From the NCBI GenBank assembly GCA_963732395.1, contig CAVSZF010000007.1, forward strand, positions 761,571-825,570: a stretch of DNA of 64,000 bases. The letters are read 5' to 3'. The position numbers and the translations under genes were made by a program. Each line of letters begins with the position of its first letter. Positions within the stretch are counted from its first letter, which is position 1. Under the pieces are notes generated by a model. The model was given only the letters and a program-made list of their open reading frames with translations, did no database searches and was not told the DNA's origin. The stretch comes from an uncultured Spirochaetota bacterium (lineage in GTDB: Bacteria; Spirochaetota; UBA4802; UBA5550). Positions 3,897 through 59,327 of this stretch are shown in pieces.

Positions 3897-5690
3897 ATGG
3901 ATAAAGACAAACTCGACAAAACCAAGAAGAATATCGGTGTGACGAATATGGACGAGCAGACCAGAAAGAATCTGTTCGAAAAATTTGTGGACGGCGGGGG
4001 AAAAGTGATCGATGAAAAGGCCGCACGAAAGCGGCTTACAATCGATCGTGAAAAACAGAAACAGTTTCTCAAGAAAGCGGAGATCCATGCGAACAGGGGA
4101 AGAAGGGTAGAAAAACAGAGACAGGTCGATCAGAAGCAGGTCGTACAGCAGCGTCCCCCCGCGACTGGCGACATTGGCCCACTGGCCCTCTTCTTCAACA
4201 GGTTGAAACTCAGAATAAAGCTGAAGACTTCCGGTGTGGCAGGCTTCAACGGCTATTTTTTCGATGCACGGTTTTTCAAGAAATTCAATAACACTTACAA
4301 GCCCGCAATGATGGAGTTGCAGATACTTTTTCTCGAGATATTCAGAAAAAGTCCCGCCACAGGAAGGGAGATTACGTCCCGACTTGACAAGATCAAGCCG
4401 CTCTATTATGAGCTGATCGAGATGATCGGAAATCTTTTTGACAAAATCATGGCCGATCAGATCGTCGAGCAGTACATCAATTTCCCGGAAGTCCCGAAAA
4501 AAACAGGAGAGTTGAAGGGACAGATATTGCTTCTGTATAAAAAGCTGCATCTCCTGAGCCGGTATGAGCATTCAATTCTTTCTGCATTCGAAATGGCCAT
4601 CGATCTCTACCTGAAGAAAGGTGAAAAATCATCGGATTCGTTTTCATCCATGAGGAAAAGTGCCCGCAACGATCTATTCGTGGTGTTTCATAAATTATAT
4701 CCGCGTCTCCACCTGCTTTTTTGTCTATATCAGTGGAGACTATACCCTCAGTCTGATCCCGCTATAGACGGGATTCTCGGCGTATTGGACGAAGAAAAAC
4801 CGGGGAACAGGCAGCTGGAGCGGTATTTTGAGGAGAGTTCAGTAACGGTAACGGGACCGGAGAATACTGAGGCGGACGAGGAATTGGAAAAGCCTGATGA
4901 CGCAAGGGCGAAGGCCTTGCGAAAGGGATTGGAATTGATGTCCATGATTGATTTTGCCAGGCTTAGAAAGGAGTATGACCGGACGCGCCTTTTCGAAAAT
5001 GTGGGTGAAGGAGACAAGGTGTTTCTCACTTACCTTCTGTTCAACGAATTCGACAGAGAATACTCGTTCATACTGACCACGAGTAAAATTAAGTTCAGGA
5101 CTGATTTTATCGCACGCACAAAGATTGATTTCAGATCGAGGCTCAACGTCCTGTACGATAGAATGAAAAAGAGCAGTGACGGCCTCAAGGAATACGCGGA
5201 AGAGCTGGGGAGCTATGAAAAGGCCCGCCGGGAAAAACCCTCGAGCAACGCCCAGTACATCGAGTTTACGAAGAGGATGGAATCCTTCGAGAAAAAAAAG
5301 ACCGCGGCGGGGAAAAACGCCCTTGCAATGGTACGCCAATATATGACCGAGGTGGCTGAAGAGCTCGCGTTGCTAATGGATGACATGGACGGTAATCAGA
5401 TATATGTCGAGAATCCCCAGGAGGAGATCGTATTCGATACCCTTATCGAAGGGGAGAAAAAGCTGAACGGGAAGAAGGTATTTGAGGCCATCCATATCGC
5501 TTATTCGTATGCCTTCGCCTTCGCAAGCCGCTTGAGTCAGGGAGGAGACCTTTCCGGCGATCTTGAATTTAAGAAAGAGGAGCTGGATGAGCTCAGGAAG
5601 CGGATGGAAGAACAGGCCGCTATGGCGCGTGAGGAATCCGAGCGTGAAGAAAAAAAATCGGTACTGGAAGAACTTGACGATATGCTGTAA
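3897..5690 (+). CDS. Hypothetical protein, highly charged (K/E/R-rich), coiled-coil-like, no recognisable domain
   Basis: Long ORF with a consistent coding look and no motif I can name. Start moved from the track's TTG (3837) to ATG 3897 because of the promoter call. It occupies the slot after mnmE where mnmG/rsmG are often found. Confidence 0.6.
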   Translation: MDKDKLDKTKKNIGVTNMDEQTRKNLFEKFVDGGGKVIDEKAARKRLTIDREKQKQFLKKAEIHANRGRRVEKQRQVDQKQVVQQRPPATGDIGPLALFFNRLKLRIKLKTSGVAGFNGYFFDARFFKKFNNTYKPAMMELQILFLEIFRKSPATGREITSRLDKIKPLYYELIEMIGNLFDKIMADQIVEQYINFPEVPKKTGELKGQILLLYKKLHLLSRYEHSILSAFEMAIDLYLKKGEKSSDSFSSMRKSARNDLFVVFHKLYPRLHLLFCLYQWRLYPQSDPAIDGILGVLDEEKPGNRQLERYFEESSVTVTGPENTEADEELEKPDDARAKALRKGLELMSMIDFARLRKEYDRTRLFENVGEGDKVFLTYLLFNEFDREYSFILTTSKIKFRTDFIARTKIDFRSRLNVLYDRMKKSSDGLKEYAEELGSYEKARREKPSSNAQYIEFTKRMESFEKKKTAAGKNALAMVRQYMTEVAEELALLMDDMDGNQIYVENPQEEIVFDTLIEGEKKLNGKKVFEAIHIAYSYAFAFASRLSQGGDLSGDLEFKKEELDELRKRMEEQAAMAREESEREEKKSVLEELDDML

Positions 5691-5704
5691 ACGGGTCCCT
5701 GCTG

Positions 5705-6541
5705 TCACACCTGATTGATCTCATCAGACTTCCGAACGAGAATTGCATCCCTGCGATGTTTCAAAATAGATTCCCTGTCCGCTGAAAGGAGTTGGTCCCG
5801 ATAGGGTATTGACTTGCGATTGGCACGGAGAACGGCATGTTCGGAATCCGTAAAGGGAGTGATCGATCCTCCCTTTGATGCAACCGTTCCCTCACGTTTG
5901 CCACCCACCGACGGGCCCCTTCCGACCATGAGCCCCGCATCGAGCATGGCGGTGCGGACGTGATCCGCGCTTGAATAGGTGGTAAGGACCCCCTTCTCGT
6001 CCATTACCCGGGATATCTCCCTCAGGAAATCGGTTGACCACAGCTCGGGATTGCGGGCAGGAGAAAAGGGATCAAAAAAAACCGCCTGGAAAGAGCCTGC
6101 CTCGAGACCTTTCACCGATTTACGGGCATCTCCCCAATGCACACGTATTGAAATGTCGCCCCATCGGGCGTATCCATCTTCATAGGCATGGCGGACAAAG
6201 CGGTACGCGGTATCACGGCCGTCATTGAATGAAATGGCCCTGAGGGCGTGGTGAAGGGCCCGCTCCTTTTCAAGGGAAACGATGGAGAGGGTGGCATGCC
6301 GTTTCAGGCGGATAAATTCCACGATCATCGCGAGAATGTTGTACCCCAGGCCGAAACCGACATCAAGAACGGAAAGTGAGTTGTCTTCCCGTTCCAGGAT
6401 GCGAGAGGGTTGGATATGCTTTCGAAGGGCCTCTTCATAGGCGCCGGAGAGGGAGTGCATCCCTTCGCCGTATTCGGAGAGGACGATGGTTGATGATCCG
6501 TCTCCGGTTGAAACGAAGGAAAAATGAGGGCTGTCAATCAT
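5705..6541 (-). CDS. Stand-alone MnmC-type SAM-dependent methyltransferase domain protein (tRNA mnm5U34 methyltransferase-like, MnmC2/DUF752)
   Basis: 278 aa. DVGFGLGYN SAM-binding motif. FFDPFSPARNPELWSTDFL matches the MnmC N-terminal methyltransferase signature (DGFAPAKNPDMW in E. coli). No FAD-oxidase domain is fused. Confidence 0.7.
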   Translation of the reverse strand: MIDSPHFSFVSTGDGSSTIVLSEYGEGMHSLSGAYEEALRKHIQPSRILEREDNSLSVLDVGFGLGYNILAMIVEFIRLKRHATLSIVSLEKERALHHALRAISFNDGRDTAYRFVRHAYEDGYARWGDISIRVHWGDARKSVKGLEAGSFQAVFFDPFSPARNPELWSTDFLREISRVMDEKGVLTTYSSADHVRTAMLDAGLMVGRGPSVGGKREGTVASKGGSITPFTDSEHAVLRANRKSIPYRDQLLSADRESILKHRRDAILVRKSDEINQV

Positions 6542-53806: not shown

Positions 53807-54652
53807 TCACGGTCGGGTATAATCCGAGAAAAATAGCTCGATGTACTTGCGAAGGGATTGGACAAACTCGAGCTTGATGCCTGTCTCGACGGCCCAGGAG
53901 GATTTCGGGAATACCTTTAGATTCGCGGAAAATGTTTTTTCAGCCCGGATAAGATGTTCGTACGCCATGTCAAGCTTGAAGTATCCGCGATTGTGCCGAT
54001 CGTAAAAGATTTCCTTACCTGCGATCGTGAGGTCTTCATCGCCCTGCTTGTATATGCGGTATGCCTCAACGTCGTACTGATTGGCATATGAATCGATGAT
54101 GTTGAGGCATTCCGATGCCCTGTAAAAATTGATGAGCATGACGGTAAAGACCTCAAAATGCTCGATAAGCTCCGGGTCGTCGGTCAATCTGGCGAGACGA
54201 TGTATTGCGTGATATGATTTTCTGAGAGCGAACACGATTTTGTTGAAGATGGCTCGGTTCGCCACCTTTTCCCGAATCGTCAAGCGATAGAGGGAGTACT
54301 GATAATAACGGTAAAGGGAGTCCTTGGCGCCCTCGCGATGATTGATGAATTGTCCGGTAAGGACTTCAGAATCTACAACCGTTTTCCCGGCTTGGGGCGT
54401 GGTCTTCTTTTCCTCTGGCGGGGGCGGGCCCTCAGACGGGCGAATCGACTCGGTCCTGAAACGATGGCTCATTACCGCAGAGTAAGCGAGGTTGATCTGT
54501 GTCATCGCCTCAGTCGCCCATTCAACGCGGTGCGGGTTTTTATCAGGATGGTATCTGAGGGCAAGCTTTTTATACGCGGCGACGATTTCATCGTCGGTGG
54601 CTCCGCCGCCTATGCCAAGAAGGTTATAATGGCGCTCGATGTCAGTGATCAT
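53807..54652 (-). CDS. J-domain (DnaJ N-terminal domain) protein with unique C-terminal region
   Basis: N-terminal J domain with HPD motif (DDEIVAAYKKLALRYHPDKNPH), a Pro-rich linker, and no DnaJ zinc-finger or C-terminal domains. Confidence 0.7.
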   Translation of the reverse strand: MITDIERHYNLLGIGGGATDDEIVAAYKKLALRYHPDKNPHRVEWATEAMTQINLAYSAVMSHRFRTESIRPSEGPPPPEEKKTTPQAGKTVVDSEVLTGQFINHREGAKDSLYRYYQYSLYRLTIREKVANRAIFNKIVFALRKSYHAIHRLARLTDDPELIEHFEVFTVMLINFYRASECLNIIDSYANQYDVEAYRIYKQGDEDLTIAGKEIFYDRHNRGYFKLDMAYEHLIRAEKTFSANLKVFPKSSWAVETGIKLEFVQSLRKYIELFFSDYTRP

Positions 54653-54987: not shown

Positions 54988-55017
54988 TTGACATATATAC
55001 TAATGTATGCTTATTGT
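54988..55017 (+). promoter_or_regulatory. Candidate sigma70-like promoter of lexA
   Basis: TTGACA at 54988-54993, 18-bp spacer, TATTGT at 55012-55017. The spacer contains the ATACtaatGTAT short palindrome. I could not confidently identify a LexA box. Confidence 0.35.
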
Positions 55018-55052
55018 ATGTTTATATTGAGATAAGATTGGGGGTTGGTGAA

Positions 55053-55673
55053 ATGGCGCGGAAACAGACGGTAAGACAACTGACCACCAAGCAGGAAAAT
55101 ATTCTTGAGTTTATAAAGAAATCGATAAAAGGCGACGGGTTTCCCCCAACGGTCAGGGAAATCGGTGACAGATTCAACATTACGGTCAAGGGCGCCTATG
55201 ATCATGTCAAGGCCATCGAGAAAAAAGGCTTTATAAAAATGGAGCAGAATAAATCACGCGCCATTGTGATCTTGCATGAGGAAAATGAAACCCCGACGGA
55301 CGCAATCAATATTCCTCTCCTTGGAAGAATCGCAGCCGGATCTCCCATTCTCGCGGCTGAAAATGTCGAAGAGTATCTGAGTTTTCCGCGTACGATGTTT
55401 AAAAGCGGGGACTTTTTCGCCCTTCATGTAAAGGGCGATTCCATGATCGAAGGCGGAATCAATGACGGCGACATCGCCGTGATAAAAAAACAGAATACCG
55501 CTCAAAACGGCGACATAGTCGCCGCGCTTATCGAAGAGGAGGCCACTCTGAAACGGTTTAAAGCCGCGGGGGGAAAGGTCCACCTTATACCGGAGAACCC
55601 AGCGTATAAACCGATTATCACTACCGATGTGGCCATTCTGGGGAAGTTGACCGCCATATTCCGACGGTACTGA
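55053..55673 (+). CDS. lexA: LexA repressor
   Basis: N-terminal winged HTH. Ala-Gly autocleavage site (RIAAGSPILA). S24 peptidase Ser/Lys dyad (GDSM ... K). About 206 aa from ATG 55053. Confidence 0.9.
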   Translation: MARKQTVRQLTTKQENILEFIKKSIKGDGFPPTVREIGDRFNITVKGAYDHVKAIEKKGFIKMEQNKSRAIVILHEENETPTDAINIPLLGRIAAGSPILAAENVEEYLSFPRTMFKSGDFFALHVKGDSMIEGGINDGDIAVIKKQNTAQNGDIVAALIEEEATLKRFKAAGGKVHLIPENPAYKPIITTDVAILGKLTAIFRRY

Positions 55674-55753: not shown

Positions 55754-55887
55754 TCAATAAGGGTGTGCGGTCATAATGGACCGACCCTTTACGGGCGCGC
55801 AAGGGGATACTGGACGGCGGCTGCGGGATAATCATGACGGATTGTCCGCACATCCCGCCCGTGGATGGCAAAAGGGGGGACAGGATA

Positions 55888-58782
55888 ATGGCAAAGAGAA
55901 TTCTCATGCCGGGCATATTGCTCCTTGCCTGTACGGTCGGTTTTTCCAATCAGTGGCATGATGAAGCCGATCGATTCTGGAACGAGGGCCAGAAGCTGAA
56001 GAAGGATTTGAAATACAGGGAGGCGATACAATTCCTGCGAAGGGCCGTGGCTGCGGAGATGAAAAACGAGAATCCCCGCGCTGATGAATTAATCGCTCAG
56101 TTCAACGAGCTCGGCATTCTATATGGCATGACAGGTTCCTTCGAGAGCTCTCTGCACTACCACCAGATGACCCTTAAGGCGGCCGAAAAATACGGGAGGG
56201 AAGATGATGAGGTGATGGCGCTCATCAATATCGGAAGGGTCAGCACCAACCTCGGGCGGCACCGGGAAGCCATTGACATCTATGGCCGGGCGCTGGAGAG
56301 GTCCAGGAAGTACGGCTTTGGGGACAAGGAGGTGCGTGTCCTGAACGATATGGCGGGAGCCCTGAGGGCAATGAATGATTTCGAAGGAGCCCTTGCGCGC
56401 TATACCGAAGCCCTCGATGCCGCGAAGAAGGCGGGGGGTGCGGTGCTGGAGGCGGCGATCATCAGCAATATCGGTACGCTCTATTTTTTCAGGGGGGATT
56501 TCGAGACCGCCCTGAAGGAATACGGTAGAGCTCTCGACATCGACAAGTCAAGGGGGGACGACATGGCCCTTTCCATAGGCATGAACAATATGGGAAGCGT
56601 GTATACAGCCATCGGAAAGTATGGGGAGGCCCTCAACTATTTTGAGAAATCGCTGGAAATCGACACCAGGCTGAAGAATGGCATCAACATCGCATCGCGT
56701 TTAAACAGGATAGGGGATATCTACTTCCGTGTCGGAGACGGCGCAAGCGCGATTGCGCATTTTAACCGATCTCTCGAAATCAACAACAGGATCAACAACA
56801 GGATCAACGTGGCGGTGCTGAACGCCAGCATCGGGCGTGTGTACGAGTCGATGGGCAGGTTCGAGGAATCCATTGATTATTACATAAAGGCACTCGCCCT
56901 AAACCGGGAGTTGGAAAAGGAAACCTATGTGGCCGAGCGATTGTCAGATATCGGTCTCCTTTACGAAATGCGTGGAAGGCACGGAGAGGCTGCCGATTAC
57001 TTTGCAAGGGCGCTGGAACGGGGAATCGGCACCGGAGGGAAGGAAAAGACAGCGGCGAACCTGAGCAACCTGGGACGTGTGATGACGGCGTTGAAGCGCT
57101 ATGATGTCGCGCTCGATTATTTTCGGCAGTCCCTGGAAATCTATCGAGAGACGAAGGATTCCATCTCGATTGCCGACGACCTGAAGAATTGCGGGATTGT
57201 CCACTACCATCGGAAGGAGTGGGACCTGGCGATCGACAGCCTTCTACGGGCGAGGGGCTCGATTGAGGGGACGCCCCGGACGATCTATCCGGTCAGGGAC
57301 GAGGTCGAAGGCGAGATGTACCGCTGGCTGGTCGCCGCGTATGTAATGTCTCAGAGACACGAGATGGCATTCGAGGCGAACGAACGGTTCTGCATTAACC
57401 GAATGTACTCGCCAGTTCATACCTGGAAACCGGCAGGGCCGGACCCTGCGGCCGGCTATGACAGGCTCAAGGACCGACTAGGGGCCAGCGGGGCGGCGGT
57501 GGTTTATTCGAATGTCTCCTGGGACGACCCACAGGTTGTCTGTATCAGGCGTGAAGGATCATCGGGCCATGTGCTGGACAAAGCCGCAACGGTGAAAACG
57601 ATATACAACCATTTTGGCCGCGAGATTGAACGCTTCATGGGGGAAAAAAAGACCGATATTATTTTCACAGTAGGACAGAGGTCGCGAAGCGATCATTATT
57701 ACATAGAGTTTGAAAAAATAATCAATTACTACCGGTATCTGGCCTCGAAAAAATATATCGGGAGCGATGAAAAGGATGCTTTGCGTCGCATCGGGAAGGC
57801 CCTCTACGACCTTCTTTTGGGAACAATCGGCCCGGCAATAAAAGGAAAGACGGAACTGATCATTCAGCCGGATGGCGTCCTTTCCACCCTGCCATTTGAA
57901 ACCCTGATCATGCCGGATGGAAGATTTCTCGTCGAGAAGTACATTATAACCTACGTGCACTCCCACACCATAAGCGCAGCCGCGGCGAAAAGAAAATACA
58001 ATGCCGGGAGGAAAGAACTGATGCTGATCGGCGGTGTCACCCATCCGTCAAAATCACTTCCCGGAGTCCTCGAATCGGTCCGGCACTATGAGCTCGTTAA
58101 ACAGAGAGCCGTCGATGCCATCATGAAAGGGAGGGACACCATCGGGCTGTACGGATTTTTCGGTATAGATGACATCGGTGGTCCCGGCGGCGACATAAAG
58201 GAAATCGAGTTACTGGATGGCGCCTGGAAGAACCATGACATACTCAGGGACGAGGACGTCACCGAGGGCGGGATACTGGGCGCCTCTCTCGCGGGGGCCT
58301 TTTCCGGGTACAGGATTCTGCATGTCGCCACGAGATCCGTCGTGGTTCCGGAGGCGCCGATTCTGAGCGCGCTGGTGCTCTCCAGCGAAAAGGGTGTTTC
58401 AGGTGGGAATGGCCTGCTGAATATCAGAAAAATCGCCTCTCTTAAGATAGCGGCCGATCTTGTGACCCTGTCGAACGTATTCCTGCCGCCTGCGCGTTAC
58501 AGCAAGGGGGAGGGAATATGGAGCCTCTGCGGTTCTTTCATGGATGCGGGAGCTCGGAACGTGGCGATATCGATCTGGCCTGTCGAGGGAGCGGTAAAGA
58601 TGGCACTCATAAAGCGGGCGTACCGCCTTGCACTGGAGGAGAAACTGCCCTACTGCAGTGCCTTTGCACGAGCGAAACGCGAGTTCATTACTCAAAAAGC
58701 CGATGACAGTTCCCCGGGTGGGAGTCCGGGGAACTATTCTTCCCCCTATTTCTGGGGATCTTTCATGCTGTATGGATACTAG
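55888..58782 (+). CDS. TPR-repeat / CHAT-domain (caspase-like) lipoprotein
   Basis: Start at MAKRILMPGILLLACT (lipobox). About 12 TPR-like repeats. C-terminal CHAT-like fold (LHVATRS...DLVTLSNVF...SLCGSFMDAGARNVAISIWPV) with the expected His-Gly and Cys positions apparently occupied by Arg-Ser and Asn. Confidence 0.8.
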   Translation: MAKRILMPGILLLACTVGFSNQWHDEADRFWNEGQKLKKDLKYREAIQFLRRAVAAEMKNENPRADELIAQFNELGILYGMTGSFESSLHYHQMTLKAAEKYGREDDEVMALINIGRVSTNLGRHREAIDIYGRALERSRKYGFGDKEVRVLNDMAGALRAMNDFEGALARYTEALDAAKKAGGAVLEAAIISNIGTLYFFRGDFETALKEYGRALDIDKSRGDDMALSIGMNNMGSVYTAIGKYGEALNYFEKSLEIDTRLKNGINIASRLNRIGDIYFRVGDGASAIAHFNRSLEINNRINNRINVAVLNASIGRVYESMGRFEESIDYYIKALALNRELEKETYVAERLSDIGLLYEMRGRHGEAADYFARALERGIGTGGKEKTAANLSNLGRVMTALKRYDVALDYFRQSLEIYRETKDSISIADDLKNCGIVHYHRKEWDLAIDSLLRARGSIEGTPRTIYPVRDEVEGEMYRWLVAAYVMSQRHEMAFEANERFCINRMYSPVHTWKPAGPDPAAGYDRLKDRLGASGAAVVYSNVSWDDPQVVCIRREGSSGHVLDKAATVKTIYNHFGREIERFMGEKKTDIIFTVGQRSRSDHYYIEFEKIINYYRYLASKKYIGSDEKDALRRIGKALYDLLLGTIGPAIKGKTELIIQPDGVLSTLPFETLIMPDGRFLVEKYIITYVHSHTISAAAAKRKYNAGRKELMLIGGVTHPSKSLPGVLESVRHYELVKQRAVDAIMKGRDTIGLYGFFGIDDIGGPGGDIKEIELLDGAWKNHDILRDEDVTEGGILGASLAGAFSGYRILHVATRSVVVPEAPILSALVLSSEKGVSGGNGLLNIRKIASLKIAADLVTLSNVFLPPARYSKGEGIWSLCGSFMDAGARNVAISIWPVEGAVKMALIKRAYRLALEEKLPYCSAFARAKREFITQKADDSSPGGSPGNYSSPYFWGSFMLYGY

Positions 58783-58784
58783 AA

Positions 58785-59306
58785 ATGGACAGGGCAATGA
58801 GAAGGACCGCCCTTGTCGATTCATCATCCGCCATAATTCTTTTCAAAGCGGGTCTCTTCGAATATACGGCGGAGTATTTCCGCATCGTAATCCCCGCCTC
58901 GGTTTTCGAAGAGCTGACAGTCGGGGGGCGCTCGGGGTCGGAGGAATTCGCGCGATACCGTGCGGACGGGAGCATCCAGGTCAGGGATACGGACCCGTTA
59001 TTGACGGTCGAAGGGGATATGGGCGGTCTTGACACAGGGGAGCGGGATACCATCCTCCTTTACGAAGCGGGATCGGGGGAAGTGATACTTCTCGACGACG
59101 GGAAGGGGGCCGCCATCTGCAGGCGCCGCCGCATACCCCATATCAACGCCCTGCTTGTTCCCAGGATATTTCGCCGGGCCGGCACTATCAACGTAGAGGA
59201 ATGCGAGCGACAGATGGCCACCATTATGATCCATGGCAGGTATTCCGATTGGGTGGTCGACTACGCCCGATCATGCCCGGATGACGACCTCGCGGATTTT
59301 GCGTGA
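58785..59306 (+). CDS. PIN-like nuclease-fold protein, DUF3368/COG2405 family
   Basis: N-terminal ALVDSSSAIILFKAG and central GERDTILLYEAGSGEVILLDDGKGAAICRRRRIPHINAL match the DUF3368 pattern (D...GE...LLDD). Starts 2 nt after the CHAT stop. Confidence 0.65.
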   Translation: MDRAMRRTALVDSSSAIILFKAGLFEYTAEYFRIVIPASVFEELTVGGRSGSEEFARYRADGSIQVRDTDPLLTVEGDMGGLDTGERDTILLYEAGSGEVILLDDGKGAAICRRRRIPHINALLVPRIFRRAGTINVEECERQMATIMIHGRYSDWVVDYARSCPDDDLADFA

Positions 59307-59327
59307 GGGAATGATCGGGGAAGGGTG

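Follow-up and report, generated by a model that had tools for sequence, protein, structure and literature searches.

A solitary PIN-like gene related to COG2405/DUF3368 beside a TPR-CHAT gene in an uncultured Spirochaetota bacterium

The window analysed here is a stretch of 64,000 nucleotides (nt) from an uncultured Spirochaetota bacterium (assembly GCA_963732395.1, contig CAVSZF010000007.1, positions 761,571 to 825,570 of the forward strand). Close to its right end it contains an open reading frame (ORF) whose product resembles the PIN-like proteins of the COG2405/DUF3368 lineage, and this ORF lies directly behind a long gene encoding TPR repeats and a CHAT domain. The analysis presented below suggests that the PIN-like gene belongs to a widespread subfamily that has no UPF0175 partner and would encode a stand-alone nuclease.

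The PIN gene and its relatives

The features on which the analysis is centred are the following:
58785..59306, + strand: solitary PIN-like (COG2405/DUF3368-related) gene, 173 amino acids (aa), recognised from the ORF list, its homologues, the predicted fold and the hhalign comparison
58818-58820, + strand: PIN codon of D12
58911-58913, + strand: PIN codon of E43
59040-59042, + strand: PIN codon of E86
59094-59099, + strand: PIN codons of D104 and D105
55834..58782, + strand: TPR-CHAT gene, ORF of 982 aa, recognised by its Pfam CHAT and TPR domains

Two bases (AA) separate the TAG stop codon of the TPR-CHAT ORF from the ATG at 58785, and both the coordinates of the PIN ORF and its 2-nt gap to the 2.9-kb upstream gene were exact in the original prediction, which had been made from the sequence alone. 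As judged by comparison, the ORF is a real gene, since it has 36 homologues with E values from 1e-19 to 1e-108 and since the family profile, run against 1.8 billion representatives, matched (E<=1e-30) no fewer than 238 clusters defined at 50% identity. With few exceptions these clusters are 165-200 aa long and match the profile from end to end. A pseudogene or a chance ORF was ruled out by the motif residues, which are 99-100% conserved in 179 representatives. No domain fusions were found in the longer family members P0107, P0050, P0156, P0150 and P0096, whose extensions are low-complexity sequence or mis-called starts. In the NCBI records the members of the subfamily are named only "hypothetical protein".

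The homologues begin with MRR.., and the methionine of the window protein that aligns with this start is M5. For this reason, the ATG at 58797 may be the true start as an alternative to that at 58785, which would leave a gap of 14 nt to the TPR-CHAT gene, resembling the 12-nt gaps of three related loci (L001, L003 and L009). A signal-peptide-like N-terminus was not seen in the PIN protein, which begins directly with its first strand.

Kinship with COG2405/DUF3368 and predicted active site

The original prediction had labelled the product DUF3368 PIN-like, and this label holds in substance, with a qualification. Neither Pfam PF11848.13 nor NCBIfam gave any match at E<=10 for the window PIN protein or its 36 relatives, whereas the same Pfam model, with a gathering score of 27.3 bits, recognises a canonical DUF3368 control at 45.5 bits. 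The annotation nevertheless varies with the version of the model. While PF11848.13 identified none of the 37 members, the precomputed PF11848.14 annotation assigns DUF3368 to 33 of the 36 relatives, including P0001, which is 99% identical to the window protein; for P0002, P0004, P0009, P0012 and P0023 the PF11848.14 domain is listed without a mark, which stands for E<=1e-5.

Homology to canonical DUF3368 proteins was obtained by other means. A canonical set of eight plasmid genes, annotated as "DUF3368 domain-containing protein" by the Prokaryotic Genome Annotation Pipeline (PGAP), was aligned (A2) and compared with the family alignment (A1), and hhalign gave a probability of 98.3% and an E value of 1.3e-14 over 155 columns. 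The hidden Markov model (HMM) of A2 matched the window ORF at 1.7e-10 (41.4 bits), this being its sole match within the window, and elsewhere it recognised the family genes in the compared loci and its own eight controls. The PDC-S70 models of PADLOC, in which the COG2405-UPF0175 pair is treated as a candidate defence system, also gave a weak but specific match to the window PIN protein (41.5 bits, E 3.6e-11). With these models the canonical DUF3368 proteins score 150-173 bits and the PIN subfamily 28-41 bits; one canonical UPF0175 protein matched the model of the second component. PDC-S70 is listed as an unvalidated PIN-nuclease candidate in a 2026 survey (PMC12988326). In addition, two weak tblastn matches among plasmids (E 0.09 and 0.9) both fell on canonical DUF3368 genes, which is a small confirmation of kinship at the level of sequence.

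Both groups are of the same length class (157-175 aa), with about 155 homologous columns, and share a D-(T/S)-S motif after the first strand, V..EL, LD.GE..(A/T)I and (I/L)(D)(D/E).G, as well as a C-terminal helical extension. The two groups diverge mainly in the stretch of 46 residues modelled by PF11848, where the canonical GL.VTG.LG.L, with its invariant TG.LG core, gives way to IP.INALLVPR in the PIN subfamily, and it is this replacement that makes the PF11848 model fail. DSSSAIIL.K, Cys112 and G-R-Y-S are likewise peculiar to the subfamily. Outside DUF3368, no match to Pfam PIN (PF01850) or to PF20698 (PIN-TPR-GreABC, threshold 27.8 bits) was found for the window PIN protein. Below that threshold, PF20698 gave E 0.043 for two of the 36 relatives and E 0.004 (18 bits) for a canonical DUF3368 control. 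At the sequence level the PDB yielded only chance-level matches, whether it was searched with the PIN protein, the family profile or the canonical consensus.

When the structure was modelled with AlphaFold2 from the family alignment, the model reached a predicted local distance difference test (pLDDT) of 92.1 and a predicted template modelling (pTM) score of 0.87. The Foldseek matches of this model were PIN, VapC, SMG6 and Nob1 structures. In structure comparison the best match was 2mdt, the solved structure of the COG2405 cluster, with a PIN-like alpha/beta/alpha fold. This entry is SSO1118 of Sulfolobus solfataricus, a minimal PIN domain of 119 residues that is 12% identical to the window protein, which has 173 aa and all the core acids. 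Since hhalign, the A2 HMM, the AlphaFold2 model and the Foldseek results agree, the window PIN protein is, by sequence comparison and modelled structure, a divergent member of the COG2405/DUF3368 lineage.

Conservation of the key residues was counted in 179 family representatives, drawn largely from the clusters at 50% identity:
D12, 179/179
E43, 178/179
G85, 179/179
E86, 178/179
D104, 178/179
D105, 178/179
C112, 174/179
N121, 172/179
Y153, 178/179

The criterion for the active site was taken from Matelska 2017, and the residues were placed by sequence and by the secondary structure of the model. In the model, D12 follows the strand 8-11, E86 opens the helix 84-94 and D104-D105 come after the strand 100-103. 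Loss of the acidic residues had been named in the original prediction as evidence against it; D12, E43, E86, D104 and D105 are instead conserved in at least 99% of the representatives.

Antitoxin search and gene neighbourhoods

The premise that a DUF3368 gene is normally the second gene after a UPF0175 gene was borne out, as a UPF0175 gene lies immediately upstream, and often overlapping, in all eight canonical plasmid loci, and UPF0175 (COG2886) occurs solely in COG2405 context (Matelska 2017). From these eight partners an HMM was built and run on six-frame translations with the filters off (--max) and a cut-off of E<=10. Neither the 64-kb window nor the 88 family loci yielded a match in any frame, the eight controls, at 92-119 bits, being all that it found. 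UPF0175 is thus present in 8/8 canonical loci and in 0/88 loci of the PIN subfamily. In all frames of the window this search was also negative for a hidden UPF0175 ORF overlapping the 3' end of the CHAT gene. Seven of the alternative-frame ORFs within 58089-59053 gave no relevant Pfam match at E<=10. Furthermore, the CHAT match runs to residue 981 of 982 and the CHAT frame is used to its very end, so that no intergenic space is left for a further gene before PIN. The original observations, that no small ORF lies between the two genes and that the PIN gene is an orphan, therefore stood.

Other types of partner were also looked for. Small ORFs are present directly upstream in nine loci and were judged by eye to be unrelated or spurious and not antitoxin-like; no family of small upstream ORFs conserved across differing contexts was found among the family loci, and the position of those that recur in related loci suggests that they are shadows, in other frames, of the conserved CHAT or cysK-like genes. 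No VapB-type gene (RHH, AbrB, HTH or Phd) was detected upstream of PIN. As regards an RNA antitoxin, there was no Rfam match and no repeat array. A co-directional downstream partner is excluded, because the next gene, 21 nt away, is convergent.

When 185,579 species, each represented by one genome, were scanned for the family pattern, 116 of them had a member of the PIN family, and 80 species-level loci were retained for comparison of the neighbourhoods by tblastn with the neighbour genes of the window. The hosts are metagenome-assembled genomes of Spirochaetota/"Leptospirales", many Desulfobacterales and SAR324, and they include the cultured Desulfonema magnum, Desulfosarcina variabilis and Desulfospira joergensenii. 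The names given here to neighbours (cysK-like, phosphoribosyl pyrophosphate (PRPP)-synthetase-like and so on) are readings of their sequences and of precomputed Pfam matches.

No family member was found among 72,556 plasmids. The G+C content of the PIN gene (0.56-0.58) equals that of its flanks, and a horizontally acquired island was rejected for this reason. Altogether, the patchy, mobile-element-linked distribution typical of toxin-antitoxin (TA) and defence genes was not found, as judged by plasmids, synteny and G+C content. Canonical DUF3368 genes, in contrast, are on plasmids, near integrases and insertion sequence (IS) elements, whereas those of the PIN subfamily are chromosomal and stand among housekeeping genes.

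In one Spirochaetota clade the gene forms part of a syntenic block consisting of a leftward DnaJ gene, rightward lexA, CHAT and PIN genes, a leftward ATP-grasp/FMN_dh gene and a rightward glpX. The order of DnaJ, lexA, PIN, ATP-grasp and glpX is kept in 12 species-level Spirochaetota loci while the PIN protein itself diverges, its identity going down from 62% to 36%. Neither lexA nor CHAT is present in five further Spirochaetota loci or in any of those of Desulfobacterota and SAR324. In loci beyond the clade, PIN follows a cysK-like PALP gene (about 10 loci), a PRPP-synthetase-like gene or others, often with gaps of -4 to +44 nt. About 10 Desulfobacterales loci share the order hexapeptide acetyltransferase-like (cysE-like), PALP (cysK-like), PIN, ubiA. 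In several of them (L007/L045, L022, L024, L028, L038, L049 and others) this string, with a ubiA-like prenyltransferase at its end, is preceded by a sigma54 activator, and a methyltransferase on the opposite strand then closes it.

In the upstream gene of the window, Pfam CHAT (1.3e-34) covers residues 652-981 of 982 and profile positions 2-288 of 289, and seven TPR stretches (TPR_12, 6e-70) precede it. No significant Pfam or NCBIfam families other than TPR-type and CHAT were found in this gene, the wider neighbourhood not having been checked for a GreA/B-C domain. The real start is probable at M19 (55888). All 11 CHAT orthologues (the window, L001, L003, L004, L006, L009, L011, L013, L018, L021 and L042) have a signal-peptide- or lipobox-like N-terminus, formed by a short basic segment, a hydrophobic stretch with a Cys and then the conserved NQWHDEADR motif, in general form (A/S/T)(N/D)Q(W/Y/F)HDEADR; in the window this N-terminal region is 55834-55960. 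Because this N-terminus resembles that of a signal peptide or lipoprotein signal, the TPR-CHAT protein is probably an exported or periplasmic protease, and its compartment would probably differ from that of the PIN product. A defence context, such as that of the Craspase-like TPR-CHAT proteins of CRISPR type III-E, was considered and rejected; PADLOC gave only generic TPR matches for the CHAT protein, which has a putative signal peptide.

A full-length CHAT gene precedes PIN in 8 of the 80 species-level loci, all of them from the one Spirochaetota clade. Within the same block, CHAT is absent from four genomes that retain lexA and PIN, the gap between these two genes being 28 nt in L059, 9 nt in L075, 436 nt in L078 and 435 nt in L012. 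Inside the spacer of L012, at 5673-5897, there is a 75-aa TPR fragment that is 44% identical to residues 136-208 of the window CHAT protein, apparently the remnant of a CHAT deletion. These comparisons suggest that the adjacency of CHAT and PIN reflects a lineage-specific gene order and not a demonstrated partnership.

The remaining features around the two genes are:
53807-54652, - strand: DnaJ-domain protein, 281 aa, with a Pfam J domain at the N-terminus only and the remainder unannotated
54988..55024, + strand: lexA promoter/operator block, TTGACA-18-TATTGT, a 10/12 match in the promoter scan
55014..55673, + strand: lexA, with Pfam LexA_DNA_bind and Peptidase_S24
59266..59319, no strand assigned: inverted repeat with 13-nt arms, 92% complementary, and a 28-nt spacer, spanning the PIN stop codon
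59328..61625, - strand: fusion of ATP-grasp and flavin mononucleotide (FMN)-dependent dehydrogenase, 765 aa, recognised from the ORF list and the Pfam matches of its orthologues

Upstream of PIN and on the same strand, lexA is found in 12 of the 80 species-level loci, four of which have no CHAT, and it is thus the more persistent upstream neighbour in the Spirochaetota clade. In the window the lexA gene probably begins in fact with the ATG at 55053, giving 206 aa. In the 14 sequences compared (the window and 13 Spirochaetota loci), lexA is preceded by a conserved stretch of some 40 nt, cTTGACATATAtACTAATGTATGCTTATtgTATGTTTAGAT. Within this block lie the direct repeat TGTATG(C/T)TTA at 55004 and 55015 and the near-palindrome CATATAT-N4-ATGTATG, and no further copies of it were found in the 64-kb window. 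This block looks like a candidate LexA operator of the clade; it differs from the published LexA box of Leptospira, TTTG-N5-CAAA. By consensus scan no other strong promoter-like site precedes the lexA-CHAT-PIN string, and the same kind of scan predicted no terminator-like site between lexA and CHAT on the + strand.

The DnaJ-domain gene is divergent from lexA and syntenic in all members of the clade. On the other side, the fusion of ATP-grasp (ATP-grasp_3/4, LAL_C2) and FMN-dependent dehydrogenase, an unusual architecture, is 70-87% identical across the clade and converges on PIN, with glpX beyond it. The inverted repeat, whose arms are CCCGATCATGCCC and GGGAATGATCGGG, extends over the PIN stop codon and the spacer of 21 nt before this convergent gene. 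The repeat, after which there is no T-tract, may form a putative 3' hairpin shared by both genes, for which a terminator function could be proposed.

Proposed role of the PIN protein

The reading that we favour, with a probability of roughly 0.6, is that the gene encodes a stand-alone, active PIN nuclease which comes from the COG2405 toxin lineage and would act without a protein antitoxin. Since it belongs to a widespread antitoxin-free subfamily placed among housekeeping genes, the protein would probably be a nuclease of the ordinary stand-alone kind. The analogy with the VapC group makes a Mg2+/Mn2+-dependent endoribonuclease most likely. The subfamily would have left the toxin-antitoxin lifestyle and would need no protein antitoxin, its gene being inherited vertically and kept as a single chromosomal copy at the distal end of whichever housekeeping operon hosts it. 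In the Spirochaetota clade this operon would be lexA-(TPR-CHAT)-PIN, with CHAT as a lineage-specific, exported neighbour instead of a neutralising partner. The original prediction had left the choice between a CHAT protein that took over the partner role and a PIN protein with a non-toxin function; of the two, the second is favoured by the chromosomal, solitary occurrence of the gene in putative housekeeping operons.

The comparison with known systems is consistent with a non-toxin function. The window PIN gene differs from the COG2405-UPF0175 module (PDC-S70) in having neither the partner gene nor a mobile, patchy distribution, and from the VapC of VapBC pairs in that no VapB-type gene precedes it, it is not multi-copy, it is not on mobile DNA and its product does not match PF01850. 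On the other hand, Nob1, Utp24/Fcf1, SMG6 and the HARP RNase P proteins resemble the subfamily in being encoded by single, antitoxin-free genes of vertical descent, although the window PIN protein does not belong to any of these families at the sequence level. PIN subfamilies with non-TA genomic contexts are already known (Matelska 2017).

Several points weigh against this stand-alone nuclease. The residue after the fifth strand is Asn (N121), not Asp, and the site is thus not the textbook four-acid site of VapC; in COG2405 the number of active-site residues ranges from 2 to 5 and some members are probably inactive (Matelska 2017). The UPF0175 profile was built from eight sequences only, and an antitoxin unlinked to the gene could be encoded elsewhere in the genome, the search having covered 64 kb here and +/-6 kb in the other loci. 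Moreover, the genes of the comparison loci were called by a crude longest-ORF heuristic, and the CHAT signal peptide was judged by inspection and not with a dedicated predictor.

The PIN protein could still be a growth-arresting toxin whose control has moved from a protein antitoxin to transcription, its gene being repressed by LexA as the last gene of a lexA unit and released by DNA damage, which would make it an SOS-inducible nuclease; alternatively, such a toxin would have an unlinked or unrecognised antitoxin. The co-directional lexA genes upstream, which come as close as 28 and 9 nt when CHAT is missing, agree with such a toxin, and so do the conserved lexA block as sole strong promoter-like site, the lack of a predicted terminator before CHAT and the intact active-site residues. 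A parallel can also be drawn with the three-component HTH-protease-PIN systems described for COG2405 (Matelska 2017). However, most family members, namely those of Desulfobacterota and SAR324 and of five Spirochaetota loci, conserve the same residues with no lexA nearby, and the linkage to lexA could be plain gene order, as DnaJ, ATP-grasp and glpX are equally syntenic. In addition, the window has no second operator-like copy of the lexA block, and co-transcription of lexA, CHAT and PIN is read from consensus scans alone. We consider such a toxin unlikely.

A little less likely again is a catalytically silent PIN-like module that binds RNA or protein and is neither toxin nor enzyme. COG2405 has been flagged "+/-" for its active site, with 2mdt as the example of a questionable one (Matelska 2017), and this is the very entry that was the best structural match; the exchange of TG.LG for INALLVP and the Asn at position 121 point in the same direction. 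Nevertheless, five acidic residues at canonical positions that are 99-100% conserved (n=179) would be difficult to account for if the protein neither catalysed a reaction nor bound metal, and they argue against such a module.

Equally doubtful is the bolder idea that in the Spirochaetota clade the gene of a former toxin-type PIN nuclease has been wired into the lexA unit, repression by the self-cleaving LexA replacing the antitoxin, and that the whole subfamily is a TA or defence nuclease domesticated as a regulated housekeeping or stress RNase. If this were true, the lexA-wired PIN protein would be a DNA-damage-released nuclease and a functional analogue of the HTH-protease-PIN systems.

Finally, that TPR-CHAT has replaced UPF0175 as neutralising or activating partner in a two-gene protease-nuclease module is very improbable, for although the genes are tightly spaced (2 nt in the window, 12 nt in L001, L003 and L009, an 11-nt overlap in L004 and L006), stay adjacent down to 30% CHAT identity (L042) and PF20698, which models a TPR-GreAB-C-PIN system, matched two family members and the canonical control weakly, CHAT is confined to one clade and missing from four of its loci that keep PIN (L012, L059, L075 and L078), its signal-peptide-like start in 11/11 orthologues and the PIN start at strand 1 lead one to expect different compartments, PADLOC sees only generic TPR repeats in it, and the PF20698 matches are far below threshold and common to canonical DUF3368.

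The PIN subfamily is therefore apparently a solitary, domesticated branch of a lineage of TA and defence-candidate nucleases, and the reading as a protease-nuclease module is removed by the comparison of CHAT loci. The value of this result lies in annotation, with a mild evolutionary interest; the surprise for specialists is limited, as solitary PIN subfamilies have been described before (Matelska 2017). Finders of TA and defence systems tend to label any DUF3368/COG2405 match as a toxin or a defence candidate, as PADLOC does with PDC-S70, and this branch, with at least 238 clusters and 116 species, should carry neither the toxin nor the PDC-S70 label. The motifs DSSSAIIL.K, IP.INALLVPR and GRYS separate it from the true TA members, and the three cultured Desulfobacterales hosts, D. 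magnum, D. variabilis and D. joergensenii, make the subfamily tractable.

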